Shown here in pieces: positions 9,192 through 48,610 of a DNA stretch of 64,000 nt. Numbering within the stretch: position 1 is the stretch's first letter; each line of letters opens with the position of its first letter. This DNA comes from a virus. The translations under genes were made by a program, and so were the position numbers. The stretch lies in IMG/VR virus record IMGVR_UViG_3300037063_000214; one strand, 5' to 3'. The notes beneath the pieces were generated by a model. It worked only from the letters and a program-made list of their open reading frames with translations. It was not told the origin of the DNA and did no database searches.

Positions 9192-9492
9192 CCGTACATG
9201 TATAACATGTACCGTTTAATTCCAGCGCATCTCCACAAGAAGGGCAGCGGTCAGATTCATCGAGATCTGATGGTTCGGTGGTATCTTCTAGAACTCTATC
9301 CAGATAGCAATAATCCATCATATCCTGGTGGGCCTTAATGTACGCTTTTCGCAAACTATTGAATTTTTTATCTTTGAATTCTTTAAAATCCCAGTTCTGC
9401 AAAACATAATCCAAACTTCCTTCCCACTCTATTTTGGCGTTAAATTCTCGTGCGTTCTCAATGGACAACAGTGGTTTATTTTTTCTCTTCAT
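9172..9492 (-). CDS. hypothetical protein with C-terminal zinc ribbon
   Basis: 106-aa ORF containing CPSCG...CYTC. Confidence 0.4.
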   Translation of the reverse strand: MKRKNKPLLSIENAREFNAKIEWEGSLDYVLQNWDFKEFKDKKFNSLRKAYIKAHQDMMDYCYLDRVLEDTTEPSDLDESDRCPSCGDALELNGTCYTCTGEQNEN

Positions 9493-9521
9493 CGTAACTC
9501 CTTACGATAATACCATAAAGT

Positions 9522-9610
9522 TGGCCGAGAGAAAGGGATTCGAACCCTTGATACCTTACGGTATACCAGTTTTCAAGACTGGCGGCATAATCCATCTCGC
9601 CCATCTCTCG
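9522..9610 (-). tRNA. tRNA-Ser (anticodon UGA)
   Basis: Manual fold: acceptor CGAGAGA/TCTCTCG, discriminator G and CCA. Anticodon stem CCAGT/ACTGG with loop CTTGAAA. 16-nt variable arm. T-arm AAGGG-TTCGAAT-CCCTT. Confidence 0.85.
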
Positions 9611-9617
9611 GTAAAGG

Positions 9618-9704
9618 CAGAGAGTACCGGACTCGAACCGGTGTGCCCTATTTCTAGAAGCAGTCGCTTTCGAGGCGACCTACCATGCCCACTGGTTACT
9701 CTCT
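9618..9704 (-). tRNA. tRNA-Ser (anticodon CGA)
   Basis: Acceptor AGAGAGT/ACTCTCT. Anticodon stem GTCGC/GCGAC with loop CTCGAAA. Long variable arm. T-arm ACCGG-TTCGAGT-CCGGT. CCA not fully encoded. Confidence 0.8.
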
Positions 9705-9709
9705 AAACT

Positions 9710-9798
9710 TGGCGATGACAGACCGATTCGAACGATCGATACCTTGCGGTATGGTAGCTTTCCAAGCTACTGGGTTAATCCATCTCCCCCATGTCATC
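9710..9798 (-). tRNA. tRNA-Ser (anticodon GGA)
   Basis: Acceptor GATGACA/TGTCATC, discriminator G and CCA. Anticodon stem GTAGC/GCTAC with loop TTGGAAA. Long variable arm. T-arm GATCG-TTCGAAT-CGGTC. Confidence 0.8.
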
Positions 9799-9897
9799 AA
9801 ATCGCAGGGAACATAAAACATACAGTTGGTACAACTCCACTGCCGGGTTTCCCCCAGTGGGTATCGAAGTAACTGTACGCAACACCGCTGCGAATTT

Positions 9898-10347
9898 TTA
9901 CTCTTCTGGACCTTCACCGACTTCGATGAAGTCCATTAAATCTTCCCCACCAGCATATTTACTAGTGTTACCGCCTAGCCATCCGTTAAAAGCTCCCTGC
10001 TCTGTGGCTTTACGAATACCTTCAACTAAAAACAACCAGGCATCGTATGGCATGTCCCTGCGTAGATAGTTGCATCGCATACATGCTGGATTGACATTCG
10101 TCTTTAAATGACCTAAGCTATTATCTATTCTATCCAAGGTCATCCTTATTTTTGTCTCTCCGCAGTAAAAACATCCATTGCTAATTTTATCCTTAATAAA
10201 GTCTTTGTCAAGATCATTTTCCCGAAGCAATTTTTTATCTGAGCTACGAGAATCTCGCCAAATAATGCTAGGTAAAAATTTAGGATCTTGCCTACGCCTT
10301 TTAGCCCAACGATGCCGTTTTTCCCTACAAACTATTTTAGTGTCCAT
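9898..10347 (-). CDS. HNH endonuclease
   Basis: CFYCGE...LDRIDN..GH...NVNPACMRCN motif. Confidence 0.7.
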   Translation of the reverse strand: MDTKIVCREKRHRWAKRRRQDPKFLPSIIWRDSRSSDKKLLRENDLDKDFIKDKISNGCFYCGETKIRMTLDRIDNSLGHLKTNVNPACMRCNYLRRDMPYDAWLFLVEGIRKATEQGAFNGWLGGNTSKYAGGEDLMDFIEVGEGPEE

Positions 10348-10379
10348 GCTAAGAACACAGAAAGTTTGTTTTGATGTTA

Positions 10380-10469
10380 TGGCGGAAGTGCCGAGGCTCG
10401 AACTCGGATAGCCCTTTCAGGCTTCGGCGGCTTAGCAAACCGCTGGTTTAACCATTCACCCACACTTCC
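10380..10469 (-). tRNA. tRNA-Ser (anticodon GCU)
   Basis: Acceptor GGAAGTG/CACTTCC, discriminator G and CCA. Anticodon stem GCGGT/GCCGC with loop TTGCTAA. 20-nt variable arm. T-arm CCGAG-TTCGAGC-CTCGG. Confidence 0.85.
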
Positions 10470-11813: not shown

Positions 11814-12320
11814 CTATTTTCGCTTGGTTTTGGGCTTCGCTTTCATTTTTATCGGATATAGTCTGATCTTTTGCGAGACATAATTTTTAAGATCGCAAGA
11901 GTCTGACACACTACCATCAGTTCCAATAGTTGTGATATCCATTATCTCCACGGGAATAATTTTACATGTACCATATGCATCATCCGAATTCTTGTTCCAA
12001 GAATTCAAAGCTTCTTGAGCTGCTTCCTTAGTGAAGTAAGTATGGAATCCTGTTTTATAAGTTTTCCAACCACCTACGAAGAGCGTAGCCTCGTCGCCGC
12101 CGGTTCCGGCGCGAATTTCGAGGACGACGGTCAAGCCTTTTTCATCCCACTCCCAAGAAGCGATTCTATCACCTGGCGTATCTGTTTGCCAGGTGATCGT
12201 TATAGAATTGTTCTTAAAACAGGAGAGTGCTTTCTTACCCCGTAAGACAATCTTCCAAGCTTTTATAGGACCTGGGATTGGCTGATCTTCATGATTTTCA
12301 AGTATGCGAGCGAGACACAT
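11814..12320 (-). CDS. member of the MCL-AWKIV / Lys-tail paralog family (P1)
   Basis: Shares N-terminal MCL...AWKIV, central GFH.Y.T, IPVEI..ITT.G.DG and a C-terminal NYV.QKIRL.P..K-rich tail with 12324-12746, 34235-34669 and the fragments at 33131-33370 and 34093-34266. Confidence 0.5.
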   Translation of the reverse strand: MCLARILENHEDQPIPGPIKAWKIVLRGKKALSCFKNNSITITWQTDTPGDRIASWEWDEKGLTVVLEIRAGTGGDEATLFVGGWKTYKTGFHTYFTKEAAQEALNSWNKNSDDAYGTCKIIPVEIMDITTIGTDGSVSDSCDLKNYVSQKIRLYPIKMKAKPKTKRK

Positions 12321-12323
12321 AAC

Positions 12324-12746
12324 TTATCCTCTCTTCAGTTTATTTTTCTTTTTCTTTGCTGGTTGGGGCATCAATCGAATTTTTTGAGCAACATAGTTTT
12401 TTAGCATCGCTTGCTTAATTTCGTAAGTTGTGCCATCAATGCCGGTAGTTGTAATTTCATCGATTTGAACTGGGATCACTTTTTTTGTTTTCATATACAT
12501 ATACAATACACGCGCCTTTGCAGCATCTTGTTGTGTAGTATAACAGTGAAACCCACTTTTGTAGCGAGTGCAGCAACTATCATTTGCGGCCAGGTAGCCT
12601 TTCCAAGCAGACTTCCATTTTTTAGTTATGCGGAACTGTTGAAACGGGGTAAAAACTTTACCCGATATTACTTCAACTATCTTCCAAGCGATAATAGGTC
12701 CCTTGATTGGGTTACGATGATTTTTTGTAACGCTTAGTAAACACAT
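12324..12746 (-). CDS. member of the MCL-AWKIV / Lys-tail paralog family (P2)
   Basis: Same shared motifs as 11814-12320. Confidence 0.5.
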   Translation of the reverse strand: MCLLSVTKNHRNPIKGPIIAWKIVEVISGKVFTPFQQFRITKKWKSAWKGYLAANDSCCTRYKSGFHCYTTQQDAAKARVLYMYMKTKKVIPVQIDEITTTGIDGTTYEIKQAMLKNYVAQKIRLMPQPAKKKKNKLKRG

Positions 12747-29493: not shown

Positions 29494-30042
29494 TCAACCA
29501 CGAGCCTGCGGCGGATTCATCGGCGCATCACCCTGAAGCTGTTCTAGAACTGTTTTTAATCTTTCTTTAATTTCATCGGCTTCTTTTAGTTGAGTTAGTC
29601 CTTCTTTATCAAACTGAGTTGAATCAAGATCTCTGAGCCATTCCTGGAGATATACGATTGTGATATAAGACAGTACAAGAAGATCTTCAAGATCTTCAAC
29701 TTCTGATAGCCGTTTGCTCCGCTTACCAGTGCTTGGATTTCGTTTTCGTCCGGTTGACCCATTTGATTTACTCCGTTGAGGAATGTGACGGTTCGGGTTG
29801 GGTAACTTTGCTACGGCGTCGGCCCACGCTTCTTCGTAAGTGTCGCCCGAGCCGATCACGGGGGCGTCGAGAGCGTCTGATCTGTATACCTCACAGACAC
29901 AGTTTTCGGGATGGGAAAAGTTCTTCTTAGCATCAACGCCAAAGTAGGTCGCTTTGGGGTAGACAGCCCAGACCGCATCCTCATTGGCTCGTGCCTGCTT
30001 CTGTGTGATATTCATATACCAGCCTTTCCGCACCTGCCACAA
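29494..30042 (-). CDS. hypothetical protein
   Basis: 182-aa ORF. Confidence 0.4.
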   Translation of the reverse strand: MWQVRKGWYMNITQKQARANEDAVWAVYPKATYFGVDAKKNFSHPENCVCEVYRSDALDAPVIGSGDTYEEAWADAVAKLPNPNRHIPQRSKSNGSTGRKRNPSTGKRSKRLSEVEDLEDLLVLSYITIVYLQEWLRDLDSTQFDKEGLTQLKEADEIKERLKTVLEQLQGDAPMNPPQARG

Positions 30043-30519
30043 ATGAAACCGTTCGCGGAATCAGTCCCATGTCGGTGCCAATGCGGTTTTATTCGGCCAC
30101 TTCCCCAGCCCAATGCACGGGCAATTTCCGTACCCAACTTGTCCCCTGCACTGGCATACCAGTGATACCATTCTTTTTGATGCCCGAATACCCGGCAAAG
30201 CCAATCCCAAGTAGGGCCGTCCCGCCATCTCCGTTTGTACGGCCATGATCCAGTTCCTATCTTAAGCCTTGGCATTAGACCCACGCTCCGCAATCGTCGC
30301 AGGACGAGTCCATGCCGACTGGATGTGTCTTCTTGTGCGGGCAGCAATTGATATTGAAAACGAAATTGTGCAACTCATCATCAGTGAGACGATTCACCTT
30401 CGCCACGGCCAAACGAAGCAGCCGCTCTTTGGTCATTTTCTTGGGCATCAGAATGTCTTCTTTCCGACCCACGAGATCCACTTTTGGGCCTCGGGTGGGC
30501 TTTCAGCTTTTCTATCATA

Positions 30520-30885
30520 TCACACGAACTTCACTGTGTCCCGCATTTTCTTCGGGTACGTGTGAAACCAAATGTTATTGTCGCCGCAGAGTTCGCAGAT
30601 ACCCTTGACCTGTCCAGCTGGGATTCGTTCTGTCCAGCTAACGAAGCGGAAGGGATGCGGACAAATCACTTGAAGCTCGTGAAGCTGCCGCGTGAGGCTA
30701 TATTCAATTGCCCTCACATCAAACCGCGAGTCGTTGAGACTCTGACTCACGGCCTTGAGTTTGTTGATCTGCGTTGGCGTAAAGCGCCCTCGTTCGCGGG
30801 CAGCTTTAAGCTCTGCGCTGGTCTCGATTCTTTGTTGACTGTTCATTTGGCTAACCTCTTTTCGGCAGTTGGGAGCGAATCGCAT
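30520..30885 (-). CDS. hypothetical protein (GC-rich island)
   Basis: 121-aa ORF. Confidence 0.35.
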   Translation of the reverse strand: MRFAPNCRKEVSQMNSQQRIETSAELKAARERGRFTPTQINKLKAVSQSLNDSRFDVRAIEYSLTRQLHELQVICPHPFRFVSWTERIPAGQVKGICELCGDNNIWFHTYPKKMRDTVKFV

Positions 30886-32370: not shown

Positions 32371-32693
32371 CTTCCCAGTCTGCGTTTTCGGATTTCCATC
32401 TCATCCCATTGGGACACGACAACCAGTGCAGCTAAAAACAAGTGCCAGCCAAAGCCTAGCAAAAATACCTGGAACATGTCAACCCCGACGCTAAAGACAG
32501 GGGATACTGATTGGTTCATTATGGCTTGAAATTTTTTGTTATCCTCTGTCTGCCCATAGAATAAAACCAATCGACATCCGATACAAGACATAAGCATCAA
32601 CAGACCGTACAGGACATAGGCCCACTGGTACCCAAACATACCCAACAATATCAGTAGAATCAAGCCGATATTATACAAAATATACTGCCCCAT
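32367..32693 (-). CDS. membrane protein
   Basis: Hydrophobic ORF. Confidence 0.35.
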   Translation of the reverse strand: MGQYILYNIGLILLILLGMFGYQWAYVLYGLLMLMSCIGCRLVLFYGQTEDNKKFQAIMNQSVSPVFSVGVDMFQVFLLGFGWHLFLAALVVVSQWDEMEIRKRRLGR

Positions 32694-32724
32694 GTGGACT
32701 TTGTGACTAAGTTAGATGAAAGGG

Positions 32725-33129
32725 TCATAGATTTGTCCCGAAAGTGTTCCTTACTCTTTGAGAGTAGTTAAGATACGGTATCCAAATACACGCAGCGATA
32801 GAAGTTCGTACCAAAGATAAAAAATATAAGGGTACAAACAAACTCTTAGCGGATATACTCCAAAATACCAAGACTGTCGTCACAACCACACTCAAGACTA
32901 AAAAACCCACAGCGAGAAGTATGCCTTCTACTCTTTTTTTTGTTAATAGTATGGCTGAAGCACTCGCCAAGAGAGTTAAAAATATGGGTATGAAAGAATG
33001 AAAGTTTTTAATCCCTCCATTCCCAAGCCAAGGGTCGGAAGAGTCAAAAGACGCTAGAAAATAAACCAGAGCATTACAGTACATCCAGATGACGAACACC
33101 AAGAGCCACCCTCTGATCCCAATTTTCAC
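32725..33129 (-). CDS. membrane protein
   Basis: Hydrophobic ORF. Confidence 0.35.
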   Translation of the reverse strand: MKIGIRGWLLVFVIWMYCNALVYFLASFDSSDPWLGNGGIKNFHSFIPIFLTLLASASAILLTKKRVEGILLAVGFLVLSVVVTTVLVFWSISAKSLFVPLYFLSLVRTSIAACIWIPYLNYSQRVRNTFGTNL

Positions 33130-33130
33130 T

Positions 33131-33370
33131 TTATTTTCCTTTCTTTTTATTTTTCTTTTTCTTGATTGGAAGAAGTCTTATTTTATTTGATACATAATTT
33201 CTTATACTACGCGTCTCTGGAGTGGTGTACCACATAGTACCGTCTGTACCTATGTAAGTTATATCTTTGATCTCAACAGGTACAACTGAATATTGGCCAT
33301 CAACATGGTAAGGAGTAATGGCTTGTACCATAGCATCAGCATCTTTTTTTGAAAAATAAGAGTGAAACCC
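33131..33370 (-). pseudogene. C-terminal fragment of a paralog-family gene (P4-C)
   Basis: The frame extends upstream of the annotated Met as VTGFHSYFSKKDADAMVQAITPYHVDG...NYVSNKIRLLPIKKKKNKKKGK and begins directly after a stop fused to the tRNA-like remnant. Confidence 0.5.
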
Positions 33371-33445
33371 TGTTACTTAGGGGGCGGGAGTCGAACCCGC
33401 CGGTCTTCCGCTTGCGCGGCTGCTCTGCCTAACCTTGAGCTAACC
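33371..33445 (-). other. tRNA-like remnant (good D-arm and T-arm, no anticodon arm)
   Basis: TAGCTCAAGGTTAGGCAGAGC D-arm and GCGGG-TTCGACT-CCCGC T-arm, but the acceptor strands do not pair and a GNRA hairpin replaces the anticodon arm. Confidence 0.35.
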
Positions 33446-33770
33446 CGAACTTTGCTTGATCCCTGAACTTCTGCCACACGCTGTCGCTCGTCTGCCAGCG
33501 CCAGAGCATGTCCACGAAGGACCCACAGTACGTGCAGTAGATTTCGACGGTGCCGTAGAGCGGGTCAAAGTTCCGACCTTCGCGCTTTGCCGCGTCATCG
33601 CCGAGACAACTGGGTTCGTGACCCCTGCGGAACACCCAAGTGCCCGATTCTCTTCCCGGTGGATCAGCCCAAATCATCAGTTCAGGCGGCTCCATGTCGT
33701 GACGAAATATCGCCGCGAAAGCATCCGCGAGATCGTCAACGTTGATATGCCCGTTTCCGTCTATACTCAT
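33429..33770 (-). CDS. hypothetical protein, markedly GC-rich
   Basis: 113-aa ORF. GC content and codon usage differ from flanking genes. Confidence 0.4.
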   Translation of the reverse strand: MSIDGNGHINVDDLADAFAAIFRHDMEPPELMIWADPPGRESGTWVFRRGHEPSCLGDDAAKREGRNFDPLYGTVEIYCTYCGSFVDMLWRWQTSDSVWQKFRDQAKFGLAQG

Positions 33771-33968
33771 AAAGCTTGTAGTCTACCGACGTGCTCGGGA
33801 TACTTCGCTGCAAATCCAACCGAGCTATACGGAGGCCAATGAAAAATTTCCCCGTCTTGCAAATCCTCGATCACGAAGCGGCAAAACTCAACCCATGCTT
33901 GTGACCCCGTTGCTGTGTACGGTCCAATTTTTAGTTCCATACACTACAATACCACAAAACTCAAATTT

Positions 33969-34046
33969 TGGTCGGCGCGGCAGGATTCGAACCTGCACCT
34001 TGCTCCTTAAGAGGGAGATATGCTAACCGTTAAACAACACGCGCCG
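33969..34046 (-). tRNA. tRNA-Lys (anticodon CUU)
   Basis: Acceptor CGGCGCG/CGCGCCG, discriminator A and CCA. Anticodon loop CTCTTAA. 5-nt variable loop. T-arm GCAGG-TTCGAAT-CCTGC. D-arm irregular. Confidence 0.7.
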
Positions 34047-34092
34047 AAACTTCAGTATTCATTAGTATGAAGCAAGCTGGAGCTTACACCGT

Positions 34093-34266
34093 CTACGAGG
34101 GCGACGAGGAGTGCTTCTTTAGAGCCCCACACCATCCGATGCTCCACTTAGAAGTTAGTATAATATGATAAAATGGGGATGAGTTACGACCAGTAACGAT
34201 CTTCCAAGCTTTGCGAACTTTATGATCTGGGGGATTAAGTGTTTGAGTGATTGTGTATAAACACAT
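34093..34266 (-). pseudogene. N-terminal fragment of a paralog-family gene (P4-N)
   Basis: MCLYTITQTLNPPDHKVRKAWKIVTGRNSSPFYHIILTSKWSIGW then stop. Its start lies inside the 3' end of 34235-34669 in another frame. Confidence 0.4.
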
Positions 34267-34669
34267 GGCTATTTCCTCTTTGTGGGATACAGACGAATTT
34301 TATTGCTGACATAGGTTTTATACCCATATCAAGTCCCTGTGTGTGGATTTCATCAATTTCAACTGGAATGAGTTGATAATATGGATATTCTGCATTCCAT
34401 TTGGAAAGTTCTTTCTGGGCGTCTTTTTTGCGGGCAAAGGTATGGAATCCTGCACTATATGAAAAGTTAATGAGGTCTTGCCCCACACTTTCTATCGTCG
34501 TTCCCTCGGCTACTTGCCAAGAAGAAGTAATAAAAGCAGGGTAACAACAAGTTTCATAACTCCCTTTCGGTGCTGGTGGGATGGGTTTATTAAAGCGAAC
34601 TATTTTCCAAGCTTTTTTTGAGCTTCTGGTAGCGATGTCGAATATTTTTTCAACTGAACTTAAACACAT
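34235..34669 (-). CDS. member of the MCL-AWKIV paralog family (P3, divergent C-terminus without the Lys tail)
   Basis: MCLSSVEKIF...KKAWKIV...AGFHTFARKKDAQKELSKWN...IPVEIDEIHTQGLDMG. Confidence 0.5.
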   Translation of the reverse strand: MCLSSVEKIFDIATRSSKKAWKIVRFNKPIPPAPKGSYETCCYPAFITSSWQVAEGTTIESVGQDLINFSYSAGFHTFARKKDAQKELSKWNAEYPYYQLIPVEIDEIHTQGLDMGIKPMSAIKFVCIPQRGNSHVFIHNHSNT

Positions 34670-34672
34670 AAA

Positions 34673-34996
34673 TCACTCCAAGGGAATATTAGCAAAATTA
34701 TCTTCGATCAATTCAGAAAAATATTTGCGTCTTTCCAAAATGTATCTTTTAACATCCGAGGCTTTGATACCGTACTCTACTAGCTCTTCTTGTGCCACGA
34801 CGGAGCGAAGGTATTCTTCTACTGGAACGGACACATATTCTTCCCTGTAGAAAGGCTCTCTGACTCCTTTTATATCCCAATTCGGCACCTTGATGACATG
34901 ATCAAATATGTAAATTTCTGTCTCCAACTGTCGAACACAAAATCGCACTTGAGAATCGAATACTGTAATGGCTCGATAGCCCAGAGATTTACTCAC
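34673..34996 (-). CDS. hypothetical protein
   Basis: 107-aa ORF. Confidence 0.4.
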   Translation of the reverse strand: MSKSLGYRAITVFDSQVRFCVRQLETEIYIFDHVIKVPNWDIKGVREPFYREEYVSVPVEEYLRSVVAQEELVEYGIKASDVKRYILERRKYFSELIEDNFANIPLE

Positions 34997-35834
34997 TCGT
35001 TGCCGCCTTTCTCACCAGTATATCATTTTCCCAAGCATATGGAATTAAATCTCTCAAATAATTCCGATTTCGAGTAAACACCGGCGTATTTTCGTCAATT
35101 ACCCAGTTGGTATTTCCGATGGTTACTGAGTCAATTTTCCGAATTATGCGTCCGTGCTTAAAAGAAGCTGGGTGCTTTGCCCAATTGTCGCCTGCGGCTT
35201 GAATAATTTCGTGTTGCGCTGCACGATTTTTTCCGTGAAGTTGTTTGTGACTGGCGTATGCTTGTGCCAGCATGGTTACGCTATTTCGTTCAGCGTCCTG
35301 TTGTCGCCAAACATAGTAATTTTCGACTTCAACCAGATCAGGAATCGTGAATACCCTAGCGTCAAACATAGCGTTCATGAGTTTTTTACCGCCAAGCAAA
35401 GATGTATCACGGGCAGACGTTACCAGCCAGCCTTCTCCGAAGGAGTCGCGGAGCGCCAGCTTCTGGTAGTAGCCGACTTGAAGGTTAAATGCCGTTGTAG
35501 CGATGGAAGCCCCCACGCTCACCCATTTCTGTATCACACCATCAAACCAGGGCTCAGTTTTGATATCGAGAAAATCCACAGCCAATAAACTGATTTCATC
35601 GGATTGAATGTAGGCGAATTGAGCCCCGCTGATTTGCTCACAAAGTGCCCTTGCTGCGGCATTCATGCAGTCCATAAATTGCTTGTCGTAGGGCTTTGCC
35701 AGTCCTTTAGTCCATGTATGGAAAGCTCTGCCAACGCGAAGAATGGTGTAAGTACGCTTCGGCAGAAGAAAACGGTACACATTTTCATGCCGTTTCATCC
35801 GATCACCCAGGGAATCGGCTTTAGATTTGCTCAT
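34989..35834 (-). CDS. Thg1-like protein (tRNA-His guanylyltransferase / 3'-5' polymerase family)
   Basis: N-terminal region aligns by eye to Thg1 (YTILRVGRAFHTWTKGLAKPYD versus [25 protein letters not shown]) and the AYIQSDEISLL region to the GQSDE motif. The first catalytic Asp (RLDG) appears to be deleted. Confidence 0.65.
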   Translation of the reverse strand: MSKSKADSLGDRMKRHENVYRFLLPKRTYTILRVGRAFHTWTKGLAKPYDKQFMDCMNAAARALCEQISGAQFAYIQSDEISLLAVDFLDIKTEPWFDGVIQKWVSVGASIATTAFNLQVGYYQKLALRDSFGEGWLVTSARDTSLLGGKKLMNAMFDARVFTIPDLVEVENYYVWRQQDAERNSVTMLAQAYASHKQLHGKNRAAQHEIIQAAGDNWAKHPASFKHGRIIRKIDSVTIGNTNWVIDENTPVFTRNRNYLRDLIPYAWENDILVRKAATSE

Positions 35835-35887
35835 ATAAAGTTGGATGCAAATAGATAAGAAATAATACAGTAAAATTTTGGAGTTGT

Positions 35888-36472
35888 CTAGCCCAATAGA
35901 TTGTTGACGATATCGGCTAAAAGGAAAGATGTCTGCTTGGGAATGCCTGGGTTGGTGGGGGAAATTGGTGCTTGAGGAACCGTGGCTTCTTCTGTACGAT
36001 GTACTGCGGGAACAACTTCAGCGGCATTAGGAGTTCCATATTTTTGAAGAAAATCAACTAGTTCATCTTGAGATGAGGCAACGGCCAGTTTGCTGAAATC
36101 CTTGAAAGTGGCTCGCGGCTTAAATGTGGAGAATGTGAAAGACAAAGTTCGTATACCCTCACCACCAGTTCCTCTGTAAACAAAATCATCGTTCCCCAGT
36201 TTCAAACCGCTGCCGTGTAGGTAATAAATAATATCTCCGGAGAGAGGCAATGCAACCGCTACTTCGCTGACTTGTACATCTTCTTCCTGTACATCCTCGC
36301 TATCAGCTACGGCTTCTCTAGCAGCGTCTAAAATATTAGGATTGGTAGTGATCCCGTAGATATGCAACCTCATATCCTTTATGGAGTCAGCATCAAGCAT
36401 CTCCAAAAGATCAAGGGTATCCCGCATTTCAACAATTTTAGATTCTTCGACTTCAACAAAACGTGGTGGCAT
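35888..36472 (-). CDS. hypothetical protein
   Basis: 194-aa ORF. Confidence 0.4.
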   Translation of the reverse strand: MPPRFVEVEESKIVEMRDTLDLLEMLDADSIKDMRLHIYGITTNPNILDAAREAVADSEDVQEEDVQVSEVAVALPLSGDIIYYLHGSGLKLGNDDFVYRGTGGEGIRTLSFTFSTFKPRATFKDFSKLAVASSQDELVDFLQKYGTPNAAEVVPAVHRTEEATVPQAPISPTNPGIPKQTSFLLADIVNNLLG

Positions 36473-36844: not shown

Positions 36845-37267
36845 TTATATTTTTATATTTTCAAGGATTTTTCGCTCAGTTTTCAAGTCTCGATTCACTG
36901 CCCGATCTTCGGAGAATTTTTCCCCATATCGTGCTTTCAGTTTAGCAATATTGTTTTCCATGATGGTTGGAAAATCAATACCGATTTCATTGCTGAATAT
37001 AGCCAAATACCACAGGCAGTCACCGACCTCTTCTGCAATATTTACTATGTCAAGGGGGGTGCCGTAAAATATATGCTTCTTTAAAGCGTCGGCTATTTCT
37101 CCACCTTCAGTTTGAATGCCTAAAGAACCGTGAAGAAGACGAATCGTTCTTTCATTAGAAAGACGCTTAGCTATGGTTGAAAAATCTGTACTTTCAGTGC
37201 GGGACGCTAATTGTTGGTATTGATGCTCCCAGAGTAAACTCTGGGGATTCCTGTCCGAGTTAGACAT
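36845..37267 (-). CDS. MazG-like nucleotide pyrophosphohydrolase
   Basis: EEVGDCLWYL and the surrounding all-alpha NTP-PPase pattern. The longer upstream extension (to 37351) overlaps the tnpB 3' end and is probably not translated. Confidence 0.55.
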   Translation of the reverse strand: MSNSDRNPQSLLWEHQYQQLASRTESTDFSTIAKRLSNERTIRLLHGSLGIQTEGGEIADALKKHIFYGTPLDIVNIAEEVGDCLWYLAIFSNEIGIDFPTIMENNIAKLKARYGEKFSEDRAVNRDLKTERKILENIKI

Positions 37268-38345
37268 AAGCCAACTCCTCGTGGGCACATCCTGCCCCGG
37301 CGAATAGCGTGTTACGAGCCGCATTGACATCGCGGTCGTACTCTGCTCCACAAGCAGAACATCGCCATTGCCTTACCGACAATTCTGCAAGTCCTGTGGG
37401 TCCTGTCGGATTACCACATTCGTTACAGGTCTTGGTGGAATACTTGGAAGCAACTTCGATAAACGTCCCACCGCTTTTGGGCATCTTGTAGGACAACATC
37501 TGTCGAATTTGTGCGTGAGATGAACTGCTCACGCTCTTCCCGAATCGTTTTGCGATTCCCTTGATTGCATCTTTGCTCCAAACTATGAGCACGTTCTCAG
37601 ATACCAGCTTCGTTGTTAGCTTGTGGTTCCTATCTTTCTTGCGGTTGGCGATGCGCTCCTGAATCCTCGCTGCCAACTGTTTGTTGTGACCACGCTGTGC
37701 TTGTCCAAGACGCTCTGCTGCCGCTTCTAACTCCCGTGGGTGTTCGATGACCTCTCCATCCGAAGTTGTGAGCAGGTTTGAAAATCCGGGATCAATGCCT
37801 ATCGCCCCAAACGCCAAACGCTTAATCGGATTCGGCTCTGCGTCTATGAATAGACACAGATACCATCCAGACGCACGCTTGATCAATCGTCCACACTTGA
37901 TCTTTCCCTCTGATATTTCCTGCTTGTGAAAGCGGACACTGCCCAAACCCGGAAGCGTAATGCGGTTGCCTTTTGGTGCCTTGATGGGATCGGGGAACGG
38001 GATGCTGGACATCTTGTTACGCATCCCTTTGAGTTTTGGTTTGCCTGCGGTCTTCTTAAAGCAACGCTTCCACGCATCGTGGACGGTGCAGAGCACGCCC
38101 TGAATTGTGTGGCTCGGTATACCCAACTTCTCTCCGTGGTTCGCCAACAAGTTTTGAAAATCGTTCTTGGAGAAGTAGATTTTGTCCTTGGCGTTTAGCT
38201 CGATCTTGCGGACGGCAAAGTTGTAAACCGAAGCCAAATTATAGAGCCACTGGTCGTAGATTTGTTCTTGCGCCTTACAAGGTCGAAGTTTGAGTTGGAC
38301 TTGTAGCATAGTGTCTAATACCGCCTAATAAGGTATTCGCTTATC
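37150..38345 (-). mobile_element. solo IS605/IS1341-type insertion (tnpB without tnpA); approximate ends
   Basis: tnpB has compositional contrast with its flanks and no Y1 transposase gene adjacent. Palindromic sequence at 38311-38343. Confidence 0.5.
37260..38309 (-). CDS. tnpB: TnpB (IS200/IS605-family OrfB; RNA-guided nuclease family)
   Basis: N-terminal OrfB_IS605 pattern. C-terminal zinc finger CNECG...CSACG with RuvC-III-like DVNAARN. GC-rich relative to flanks. Confidence 0.8.
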   Translation of the reverse strand: MLQVQLKLRPCKAQEQIYDQWLYNLASVYNFAVRKIELNAKDKIYFSKNDFQNLLANHGEKLGIPSHTIQGVLCTVHDAWKRCFKKTAGKPKLKGMRNKMSSIPFPDPIKAPKGNRITLPGLGSVRFHKQEISEGKIKCGRLIKRASGWYLCLFIDAEPNPIKRLAFGAIGIDPGFSNLLTTSDGEVIEHPRELEAAAERLGQAQRGHNKQLAARIQERIANRKKDRNHKLTTKLVSENVLIVWSKDAIKGIAKRFGKSVSSSSHAQIRQMLSYKMPKSGGTFIEVASKYSTKTCNECGNPTGPTGLAELSVRQWRCSACGAEYDRDVNAARNTLFAGAGCAHEELAYV

Positions 38346-47610: not shown

Positions 47611-48036
47611 TTATTGTGTGACAGGGATGAAATCGCTACAGGAATATTCGTGTATATGATTATCTCCCGAATGTCCGGGGGTGGAGCAGGTACCTGTTTC
47701 TAGTGCGAGTCCAGCCTGAGATGAAATTTGAGTATCGGGTGTCGGCGCTTTCAATAAAGCGATAACCTCAGCAACAACATCCTCAACGGGTTTTTCCAAA
47801 TCTTTATCGTCTATAAAAAAAGATTGAAAATTTCCATTTACATTCATTTGTAATGTGAGTTTGTTTGTCCATCCTATTTCATCAGAACCATACTTAGTGA
47901 CCATTAAACAATGATGGGTATGGGGAACAATCGGAGGAGCAGCCGCTTCTAGTTGGAGTAATAAATCAAGAATTTTCATTTGGTGGTTTCCTTGTTGATG
48001 ATACATTCCACACGCAGCCATTTGGCTGTATACCAT
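47611..48036 (-). CDS. hypothetical protein
   Basis: 141-aa ORF. Confidence 0.4.
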   Translation of the reverse strand: MVYSQMAACGMYHQQGNHQMKILDLLLQLEAAAPPIVPHTHHCLMVTKYGSDEIGWTNKLTLQMNVNGNFQSFFIDDKDLEKPVEDVVAEVIALLKAPTPDTQISSQAGLALETGTCSTPGHSGDNHIHEYSCSDFIPVTQ

Positions 48037-48289
48037 AGTCCGCCTTGTGTTTTTGGCCTCTGATGCTCATCGAATCTGTGAATTGTTACCTTACACCACA
48101 CGCGCCCTTTGATGGATAAATGCGGCGCATTAGGCTTCTGGCAACAATGCCACCCCGGCCTGTAGACGAAACCCCTGGTGCGAATTGCCTTGGCTTTGAC
48201 CCACTCGCCCACAGGTACACGGATACGCTGTCCAATAAACAGTGGGCCAAGGGTGCCATCCTTGCGTAGACGAAATAGTTTGTAAGCAA

Positions 48290-48610
48290 TTATAGCAACC
48301 TCGTGGAATCTTTGTCTTGATGTAATGTGTGAACGATAGTACCTGCTTGTTGCACAGCAGCTAGACGCTCAGTCAAAATCTTTTTGGATACGCGCCCATA
48401 CCACTCTTCCCGCTCACCATGTAGGCACCATTCACCCTTGCGAATGATTACGGTGTGCGTTGGGTAGTAATCGCGTGAGCCAACACCTGACCAGTCAGTA
48501 TGCCCTGGAGTGCGGATTACAACGAAGTCTGCACTCTGCTTAACGATCACGTTACGCCACTGGTCTGTTGTGCCAGTGCCGTATGCGTGGAGGATTTCTT
48601 GGTTTGTCAT
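48290..48610 (-). CDS. hypothetical protein
   Basis: 106-aa ORF. Confidence 0.35.
   Translation of the reverse strand: MTNQEILHAYGTGTTDQWRNVIVKQSADFVVIRTPGHTDWSGVGSRDYYPTHTVIIRKGEWCLHGEREEWYGRVSKKILTERLAAVQQAGTIVHTLHQDKDSTRLL

Follow-up and report, generated by a model that had tools for sequence, protein, structure and literature searches.

In a 64,000-nucleotide (nt) stretch of viral DNA, IMG/VR record IMGVR_UViG_3300037063_000214 (the window; all positions are numbered on it), a member of a multi-copy family of small phage genes is split by foreign DNA carrying a lysine tRNA gene. It is likely that 50 nt of this gene, the fourth paralogue P4, were replaced through illegitimate joining by ~960 nt of a foreign phage tRNA island, and that the captured cassette was later eroded. 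We regard the case as a well-resolved example of phage mosaicism with capture of tRNA genes, which is a known process. The parts of the interrupted gene and the DNA between them are as follows.

34142–34266, minus strand: 5′ part of P4, codons 1 to 42 (MCLYTITQ...ILTSKWS), within the 100% match to contig L008 1–1457 and equivalent to residues 1 to 42 of protein P0010.
34093–34141, minus strand: foreign tail of the N-fragment open reading frame (ORF), IGWCGALKKHSSSPS plus a stop codon, missing from the intact allele and antisense to a donor gene of 63 amino acids (aa).
33376–34141: foreign insert, 766 nt here and 960 nt in most relatives, delimited by blastn against the empty-site alleles.
33131–33375, minus strand: 3′ part of P4 (TGFHSYF...KKKGK plus a stop codon), which matches L008 1508–1743 except for a 9-nt indel and is recognized by the family hidden Markov model (HMM).

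Both the N-fragment ORF (34093–34266) and the C-fragment ORF (33131–33370) align to the family, and the family HMM scores the two pieces at E = 1e-12 and E = 6.3e-20, respectively. The C-fragment frame opens at 33370–33375 and aligns from GFH to the family end. The original prediction placed this opening at the edge of a tRNA-like sequence, and the TAA that opens the frame is indeed the end of a pseudo-tRNA described below. A leftover 66-aa C-terminal ORF starts at an internal ATG, 33331. The N-terminal piece had been given as the whole of 34093–34266; it follows the family as far as residue 42 (34142), and the rest, up to a stop codon 46 nt before the tRNA-Lys gene, is foreign. Judged against the intact allele, this 15-residue tail is insert DNA read through by chance.

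The intact form of P4 was found by a profile search of 5.8 billion proteins. Protein P0010 (136 aa) corresponds to the N-fragment through “...ILTSKWS,” continues with “TANNLEINSGKCEDKYI,” and goes on with the C-fragment from “TGFHSYF....” It is encoded on contigs L008, L009, L013, and L017, and a 139-aa form is present on L014 and L021. In blastn alignments, L008 and L009 are 100% identical to window 34142–35598, then contain 50 nt absent from the window, and then match 33131–33375. Window 33376–34141 has therefore replaced 50 nt of P4 (L008 1458–1507, encoding TANNLEINSGKCEDKYI), and since part of the gene was lost, this was not a clean insertion. In the empty alleles, this position is occupied by 50 to 51 nt that code for family protein (TACCGCC...AAATATAT) and do not resemble a tRNA.

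Intact P4 aligns across the junction with its paralogues and with 55 distant family members, invariant Tyr58 included; by this alignment, the intact form is therefore the ancestral one. Seventeen codons, that of Tyr58 among them, are gone from the interrupted allele, which reads as an inactivated gene, with the other three paralogues still intact. The sole difference between the C-fragment and L008 is the 9-nt indel, which is itself variable among intact alleles (136 versus 139 aa). As the fragments are undecayed, either the event was recent or the alleles keep recombining.

To follow the alleles, the distance between two fixed anchors was measured in 23 sequences (22 related contigs and the window).

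51 nt: L008, L009, L013, L014, L017, and L021; intact gene.
54 nt: L011, an 89 to 94% identical relative; intact gene.
960 nt: L012 and L022 to L028, at least 8 contigs, with 13 more similar places; full insert.
945 nt: L004; insert minus 15 nt.
767 nt: this window only; insert minus 193 nt.

The at least 8 contigs with the full 960-nt insert are independent, come from JGI and ENA, and have identical junctions. Three contigs stop exactly at the left junction, and in scaffold L019 an empty and an inserted allele are joined across 10 N. Both alleles therefore co-occur within samples. The source accessions are SAMN07125048 for L019, ERZ27254043 for L022, and SAMN07124892 for L008. We considered L019 as a third allele with a short insert and rejected it, because it is a scaffold joining the two known alleles through the 10 N. 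The frameshifts of L010, which carries the insert, were disregarded: with 63 gap openings in 3.1 kb, it looks like an error-rich long-read contig.

The insert differs from its surroundings in composition. Its GC content is 0.53 to 0.54, compared to 0.45 in the flanks and 0.435 to 0.45 in the recipient, and falls within the range of the loci identified below as donors (0.52 to 0.54). It consists of the following parts.

34051–34141, plus strand: 5′ stub of the donor 63-aa gene (MKQAGAYT..EECF), which has its start codon at 34067 and runs antisense to its neighbors.
33969–34046, minus strand: tRNA-Lys(CUU) copy 1 with encoded CCA (ARAGORN; Rfam RF00005, 37.6 bits against a gathering score of 29).
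33767–33940, minus strand: ORF57, 57 aa, from the ORF list.
33429–33770, minus strand: chimeric 113-aa ORF, with residues 1 to 53 (33612–33770) from an 81-aa gene and residues 54 to 113 (33429–33611) from a 66-aa gene.
33611–33614: junction of a window-specific 193-nt deletion, with CCC microhomology at 33612–33614, placed by alignment with L004 (3046–3235).
33377–33449, minus strand: pseudo-tRNA, 73 nt, read from the sequence and aligned to the donors.

The stub comprises the first ~18 codons of the 63-aa gene and a degenerate stretch beyond 34120, and its DNA is 88 to 91% identical to L001, L007, L029, L030, and L031; the variant of the gene in the insert reads “GGGGCTCTAA.” A 9-nt match near the left junction, GGATGGTGT, was considered as family sequence or as microhomology and rejected in favor of diverged donor sequence, since the intact allele shows that family sequence ends at 34142. 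tRNA-Lys(CUU) copy 1 begins 46 nt past the N-fragment stop codon and has a perfect 7–base pair (bp) acceptor stem and a weak D stem; its homologue in L002 scores 54 bits with Rfam. A homologue search with ORF57 returned ORF57 alone, and because it has no homologue outside insert-bearing phages, its coding status is uncertain. Neither ORF57 nor the 113-aa ORF matched Pfam or PHROG. A promoter and terminator scan of the insert gave no excess over shuffled controls, and minimum free energy folding of the pseudo-tRNA and tRNA regions was uninformative (z-scores of −1.65 and −1.23).

The full insert, as in L022, contains in order the N-fragment, tRNA-Lys(CUU) copy 1, ORF57, ORF81, tRNA-Lys(CUU) copy 2, ORF66, the pseudo-tRNA, and the C-fragment. 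Its only ORFs are ORF57, ORF81, and ORF66, with ORF81 and ORF66 separate and flanking tRNA-Lys copy 2, which is present in both L004 and L022. The window-specific deletion of 193 nt lies between ...CGAACCC and ...GTGCCCC. It took the 3′ end of ORF81, all of tRNA-Lys copy 2, and the 5′ end of ORF66, and joined the remainder in frame. The 113-aa ORF is therefore a deletion-made chimera. Its homologues cover one half each: P0004 to P0006 (77 to 81 aa) align to residues 1 to 53 and P0001 to P0003 (66 to 84 aa) to residues 54 to 113, and the fused ORF was not found in the protein database outside this window. Thus, the strikingly GC-rich ORF of the original prediction exists and its stretch is GC-rich (55 to 60% GC, with neighbors at 35 to 45%), but it is a fusion of two unrelated small genes rather than a single gene.

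In L004, a different deletion, of 15 nt and flanked by TGC repeats, destroys the T arm of tRNA-Lys copy 1 (L004 2626–2690) and leaves copy 2 intact. Erosion is thus reciprocal: the window keeps copy 1 and L004 keeps copy 2. Going by these breakpoints, the cassette has been eroding since its capture through deletions mediated by 3-nt microhomologies. Both deletion derivatives keep one tRNA-Lys copy, which, with two cases, is weak evidence of selection.

The source of the insert was sought in a set of donor loci (L001 to L003, L005 to L007, and L029 to L033), which comprises contigs encoding P0001 to P0003, P0005, and P0006 and five contigs fetched by the pseudo-tRNA pattern. These loci belong to another group of phages, with 52 to 54% GC; one donor contig is 133 kb long. 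They carry tRNA islands, with 9 to 18 tRNA genes per longer locus interspersed with small ORFs and an HNH endonuclease gene. Except for ORF57, all modules of the insert have donor homologues with 75 to 97% identity, and these occur in the same order: the opposite-strand 63-aa gene, tRNA-Lys(CUU), the ORF81 homologue, tRNA-Lys(CUU), the ORF66 homologue, and the pseudo-tRNA. In L003, the end of ORF81, tRNA-Lys copy 2, ORF66, and the pseudo-tRNA form one contiguous stretch. No family member was detected in the fetched donor loci with the family HMM.

Elsewhere in the window, 29715–30798 is 75 to 89% identical at the nucleotide level to donor loci L001, L007, and L029. This segment is locally GC-richer and is not syntenic with the donor tRNA island. 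The two phage groups evidently exchange DNA, as this shared segment indicates.

The tRNA-like sequence at the right end of the insert was first taken for a tRNA remnant. It is instead a complete copy, minus the ACCA tail, of a pseudo-tRNA conserved in the donors, where it was located as follows.

L001 10183–10258: donor pseudo-tRNA.
L007 6655–6729: donor pseudo-tRNA.
L029 4330–4401: donor pseudo-tRNA.
L030 3037–3109: donor pseudo-tRNA.
L006 1526–1598: donor pseudo-tRNA.

The window copy has D and T arms and two acceptor-stem mismatches, which are conserved in the donors. The anticodon arm is replaced by a 4-bp stem with a GCAA tetraloop (window and L029 to L033) or a 6- to 8-nt loop (L001 to L003 and L007). 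Between the two pseudo-tRNA types, a G:C pair of the T stem changes to A:T on both strands together. The tetraloops and this compensatory change suggest that the pseudo-tRNA works as an RNA. There are few distinct variants, and their anticodon-arm regions do not align in register. ARAGORN did not call the pseudo-tRNA in the window or in the donors, and in the window it had no Rfam tRNA match; a donor variant reached 25.6 bits against the Rfam tRNA model, under the gathering score of 29. Scans of viral contigs with two pseudo-tRNA patterns gave no match.

In every donor with the main form, the pseudo-tRNA ends in ...CCCCCTAA-ACCA, and the HNH gene follows within about 35 to 110 nt; in L007 it lies at 6770–7324. 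L006 has a different pseudo-tRNA in the same place, with a CUUCGA-type (UUCG-type) hairpin and no encoded ACCA end, again right before an HNH gene. In the recipient, homology to the donors runs out in every case at window 33377, which is the last acceptor-stem base (base 72) and the closing A of CCCCCTAA. One or two unmatched filler bases (G or GT) come next, and then the family gene resumes. The donors themselves diverge from one another right after ...CCCCCTAAACCAT (after ACCAT), so the pseudo-tRNA 3′ end is a recurrent mosaic boundary.

We propose that the donor was a member of a different, GC-richer group of large phages, and that a contiguous block of its tRNA island would have been captured in donor order by illegitimate, non-homologous end-joining during co-infection. 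The right end of the donor block may have been made by a nuclease cut at the boundary between the pseudo-tRNA and the HNH gene, a possibility raised by the coincidence of the right end with this boundary. The left junction has 0 to 1 nt of microhomology as judged on the sampled donors, the exact donor not being among them. The insert has neither a target duplication nor flanking repeats, and a recombinase gene is likewise absent. The capture would have destroyed P4 and given the phage tRNA-Lys(CUU).

Several observations weigh against this account or against parts of it. The 193-nt deletion is known from this one assembled window only. ORF57 and the first ~22 nt of the insert lack a clean counterpart in the sampled donors. 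The HNH gene did not move along with the block, which makes the nuclease link circumstantial. Last, only 33% of the recipient's Lys codons are AAG, and a translational benefit of tRNA-Lys(CUU) is therefore not obvious. In the three donor loci where codons were counted, AAG is the major Lys codon (L001 and L007) or about as frequent as AAA (L005).

A special case of capture by illegitimate joining is transfer driven by the HNH enzyme acting as a homing endonuclease, with a cut near the 3′ end of the pseudo-tRNA and ectopic repair. The position of the HNH gene shortly after the pseudo-tRNA in all donor loci examined, the exact stop of donor homology at base 72, and the divergence of donors after ...CCCCCTAAACCAT all speak for it. 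Endonuclease genes have been described at the boundaries of exchanged phage blocks (PMC10448857), and the endonuclease gene segB lies inside the tRNA region of phage T4 (PMC2330249); in both cases, DNA moves from one region to its homologous counterpart. However, the 960-nt insert contains no HNH gene; in the donors this gene lies just beyond the transferred block. Because the empty site shows no evident likeness to the donor site, the event does not qualify as classical homing. A single junction coincidence may also be due to chance. We therefore consider HNH-driven transfer unlikely. A broader scheme is more doubtful still. It would hold that the pseudo-tRNA/HNH boundary of donor islands is a break point set by a nuclease, from which tRNA cassettes enter ectopic sites in unrelated phages during co-infection, that tRNA-Lys(CUU) is kept because it counters a host defense targeting tRNA-Lys, and that the protein family of P4, with a predicted fold resembling that of ADP-ribosyltransferases (ART) and with genes beside a Thg1-like gene and the phage's tRNA cluster, may act on tRNA.

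The original prediction favored site-specific, integrase-type integration at a tRNA-like site, with the tRNA-Lys gene and the tRNA-like remnant as the two copies of a duplicated attachment (att) site. Indeed, sequences of tRNA type lie near both ends of the insert, and the T arms of tRNA-Lys and the pseudo-tRNA share 15 of 18 nt. Yet the shared 18-mer is a generic T loop located inside the insert, and the two tRNA elements are different genes standing in donor-island order. The empty site is plain coding sequence without anything tRNA-like, and the left junction lies 95 nt beyond tRNA-Lys, within the stub of a protein-coding gene. Fifty nucleotides of the target were lost, a repeat search found no direct repeats flanking the insert and unrelated sequences at the junctions, and Pfam and PHROG revealed no integrase domain in or beside it. 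This makes site-specific integration very improbable. Recombination between tRNA-like sequences, the second mechanism originally suggested, is likewise not supported: both elements arrived together in donor order and have in common only the generic T-arm match.

Equally improbable is that the two pieces of P4 are independent small genes, or that the arrangement is an assembly artefact. In many contigs, the 66-aa C-terminal ORF has been annotated by gene callers, as would be expected of a gene of its own. This ORF, however, begins at an internal Met of the intact protein, and intact 136-aa and 139-aa genes exist whose sequence is identical on either side of the junction. Since relatives without the insert carry a single intact gene, the two pieces are fragments rather than separate small genes, the alternative against which the original prediction of a family member split by an insertion was to be checked; the breakpoints mapped by nucleotide comparison (33376–34141 in place of 50 nt) bear it out. 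An artefact is at odds with the recurrence of the same junctions in over 20 contigs, which derive from different samples and were built by different assemblers.

A self-splicing intron or another programmed intervening sequence, from which the family protein would still be made, deserves almost no credence: group I introns are known in phage genes, and the N- and C-pieces share a strand and follow each other in the expected order, but an Rfam scan of 32500–35500 at E up to 10 found tRNA plus chance-level matches and no intron family, 50 nt of exon (not a multiple of 3, and including the Tyr58 codon) are gone, and the insert is made of ordinary donor genes.

Capture by illegitimate joining has close parallels among tailed phages, whose genomes are mosaics formed by illegitimate recombination and acquire accessory DNA of the “moron” type. 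As in such cases, a block of foreign composition is present in some and absent from other near-identical genomes, with sharp boundaries and with accessory cargo, which in this instance consists of tRNA genes. Unlike in them, the insert lies within a gene, from which 50 nt were deleted, rather than between genes; no promoter or terminator was detected in it; and its donor context, a tRNA island, can be identified.

The donor islands resemble the T4 tRNA region with SegB in that a tRNA cluster contains small ORFs and a free-standing endonuclease gene and that the boundary of the transferred block adjoins a nuclease gene. In homing of the SegB type, DNA passes between related phages whose tRNA regions are homologous, and the endonuclease gene travels with it. 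Here, in contrast, the cassette went to a non-homologous site in a different phage, and the HNH gene was left behind. Integrative elements that target tRNA genes are similar in having tRNA-type sequence near both ends of the inserted block, but in the present case the insertion did not hit a tRNA gene, neither repeats nor an integrase are present, and both tRNA elements are cargo.

Phage tRNAs are known to act as counter-defense against tRNA-cleaving immunity, as described for PARIS and the T5 tRNA-Lys (PMC11464382; PMC11555353). Similarly, the tRNA-Lys described here is phage-borne accessory cargo and polymorphic in the population; the isoacceptor, however, is CUU, and the likeness is purely one of analogy. 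By this analogy, a counter-defense role of the captured tRNA-Lys(CUU) is possible.

The remaining members of the P4 family in the window are as follows.

34235–34669, minus strand: P3, intact paralogue of 144 aa (ORF list, alignments, and HMM, E = 4.7e-30).
12324–12746, minus strand: P1, intact paralogue (whole-length family alignment and HMM).
11814–12320, minus strand: P2, intact paralogue in tandem with P1 (whole-length alignment and HMM).

Whole-length alignments confirm that these genes form a multi-copy family, as originally proposed; P1 to P3 have in common the motifs MCL, AWKIV, GFH, IPVEI, G.DG, and NYV..KIRL.P and a Lys-rich tail. The 3′ end of P3 overlaps the start of P4 by 32 nt, and the same overlap is seen in the uninterrupted L008 (P3 930–1364, P4 1333–1743). 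At the 3′ end of P3 (34235–34320), NYV..KIRL.P and the Lys-rich tail are absent and the protein ends in ...KFVCIPQRGNSHVFIHNHSNT; its orthologue P0012 on the more distant relative L011 retains the canonical tail (KTYVSNKIRLYPTKRK). A further region, 47979–48368 on the minus strand, gave a weak family-HMM match (E = 4e-4, 17.5 bits) with the motifs AYKLF...W..A...Y.PGWHC. Its frame has no MCL start and no obvious start codon, and judging by these remnants, it may be a distant or decayed fifth relative of the family.

A profile search of 1.84 billion cluster representatives retrieved 1350 family members at E ≤ 1e-3 and 118 at E ≤ 1e-10. Nearly all of the 1350 matches are 120 to 160 aa long and align from residue 1. 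The conserved residues are M1-C2-L3, K22, W41, Y58, G61-F62-H63, A71, G98, and V117. None of the 55 members scanned matched a Pfam family, and Pfam and PHROG scans of family members gave nothing significant apart from one weak match to an unannotated PHROG. PDB chains searched against the family sequence profile produced chance-level matches only, and a viral-contig scan with the profile produced no match. From these searches, the family is widespread and unannotated. The novelty claimed for it originally thus holds as regards annotation but not as regards rarity.

The fold of the family is probably ART-like according to structure prediction, which does not in itself establish membership in that superfamily. 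The nearest known fold is the BC2332-like/ADP-ribosyltransferase fold (SCOP d.166.1.6; PDB 2aua). Compared to its known representatives, the family is much smaller (120 to 160 aa). Its members are recognizable by Met-Cys-Leu at the N-terminus together with K22, W41, Y58, and GFH63, and a canonical H-Y-E or R-S-E triad is not established among them. The family profile matches no Pfam family or PDB chain. Among the roles first guessed for the family (host interaction, anti-defense, or DNA binding), DNA binding agrees less well with the predicted fold than an enzymatic function does. Five of the top nine matches in a viral structure library (BFVD) share a UniProt prefix (A0A292GJF4, A0A292GDT5, A0A292GJ11, A0A292GJ49, and A0A292GA32). 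They may come from one phage proteome, in which case the family would be multi-copy in another phage too.

Nearly all long ORFs of the window lie on the minus strand (ORF list). PHROG matches include NAD-dependent DNA ligase, ribonucleotide reductase, thymidylate synthase, a DnaB-like helicase, and a TnpB-type transposase; ARAGORN detects five tRNA genes at 8645–10469 in addition to the tRNA-Lys(CUU) at 33969–34046. Given these genes, the window is part of a large phage genome, and a near-identical metagenomic contig is 178,295 nt long. When 32700–35900 was compared by blastn to 50,697 phage records, the sole match was one of 38 nt to a tRNA of Gordonia phage GodonK, so no isolate relative of the region was found among these records.

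Two genes upstream of the P3/P4 pair lies a gene for a Thg1-like tRNA-His guanylyltransferase (34989–35834; Pfam E = 2.8e-23, PHROG E = 1e-70), kept in all relatives; phage Thg1-like proteins could have a role in repair of tRNA 5′ ends. The tRNA cluster at 8645–10469, which consists of Leu-UAA and four Ser isoacceptors, is separated by ~1.3 kb from the tandem genes P1 and P2. Thus, both family pairs adjoin tRNA-related genes. The gene at 37260–38309 is of the TnpB/IS605 OrfB type (Cas12f-like). Between it and a 194-aa gene, a MazG gene is present in L022 and L023 and none in L013 and L024, which makes this another variable spot.

Overall, the case is an ordinary one of phage genome mosaicism, though well documented, and of moderate interest. 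It provides an unusually complete natural example of phage tRNA gene capture: public metagenomes contain the site before insertion, the complete insert, two decay products that arose independently, and the donor context. It demonstrates that a “novel GC-rich ORF” can be the by-product of a deletion fusing two genes, without a gene history of its own, and that a tRNA-like sequence at a junction need not mean integration at an att site. Two leads follow for the biology of large phages: a conserved tRNA-like element without an anticodon, which in large tRNA islands invariably stands just ahead of an HNH gene, and a widespread, unannotated family of small proteins with a predicted ART-like fold that is multi-copy in large phages.

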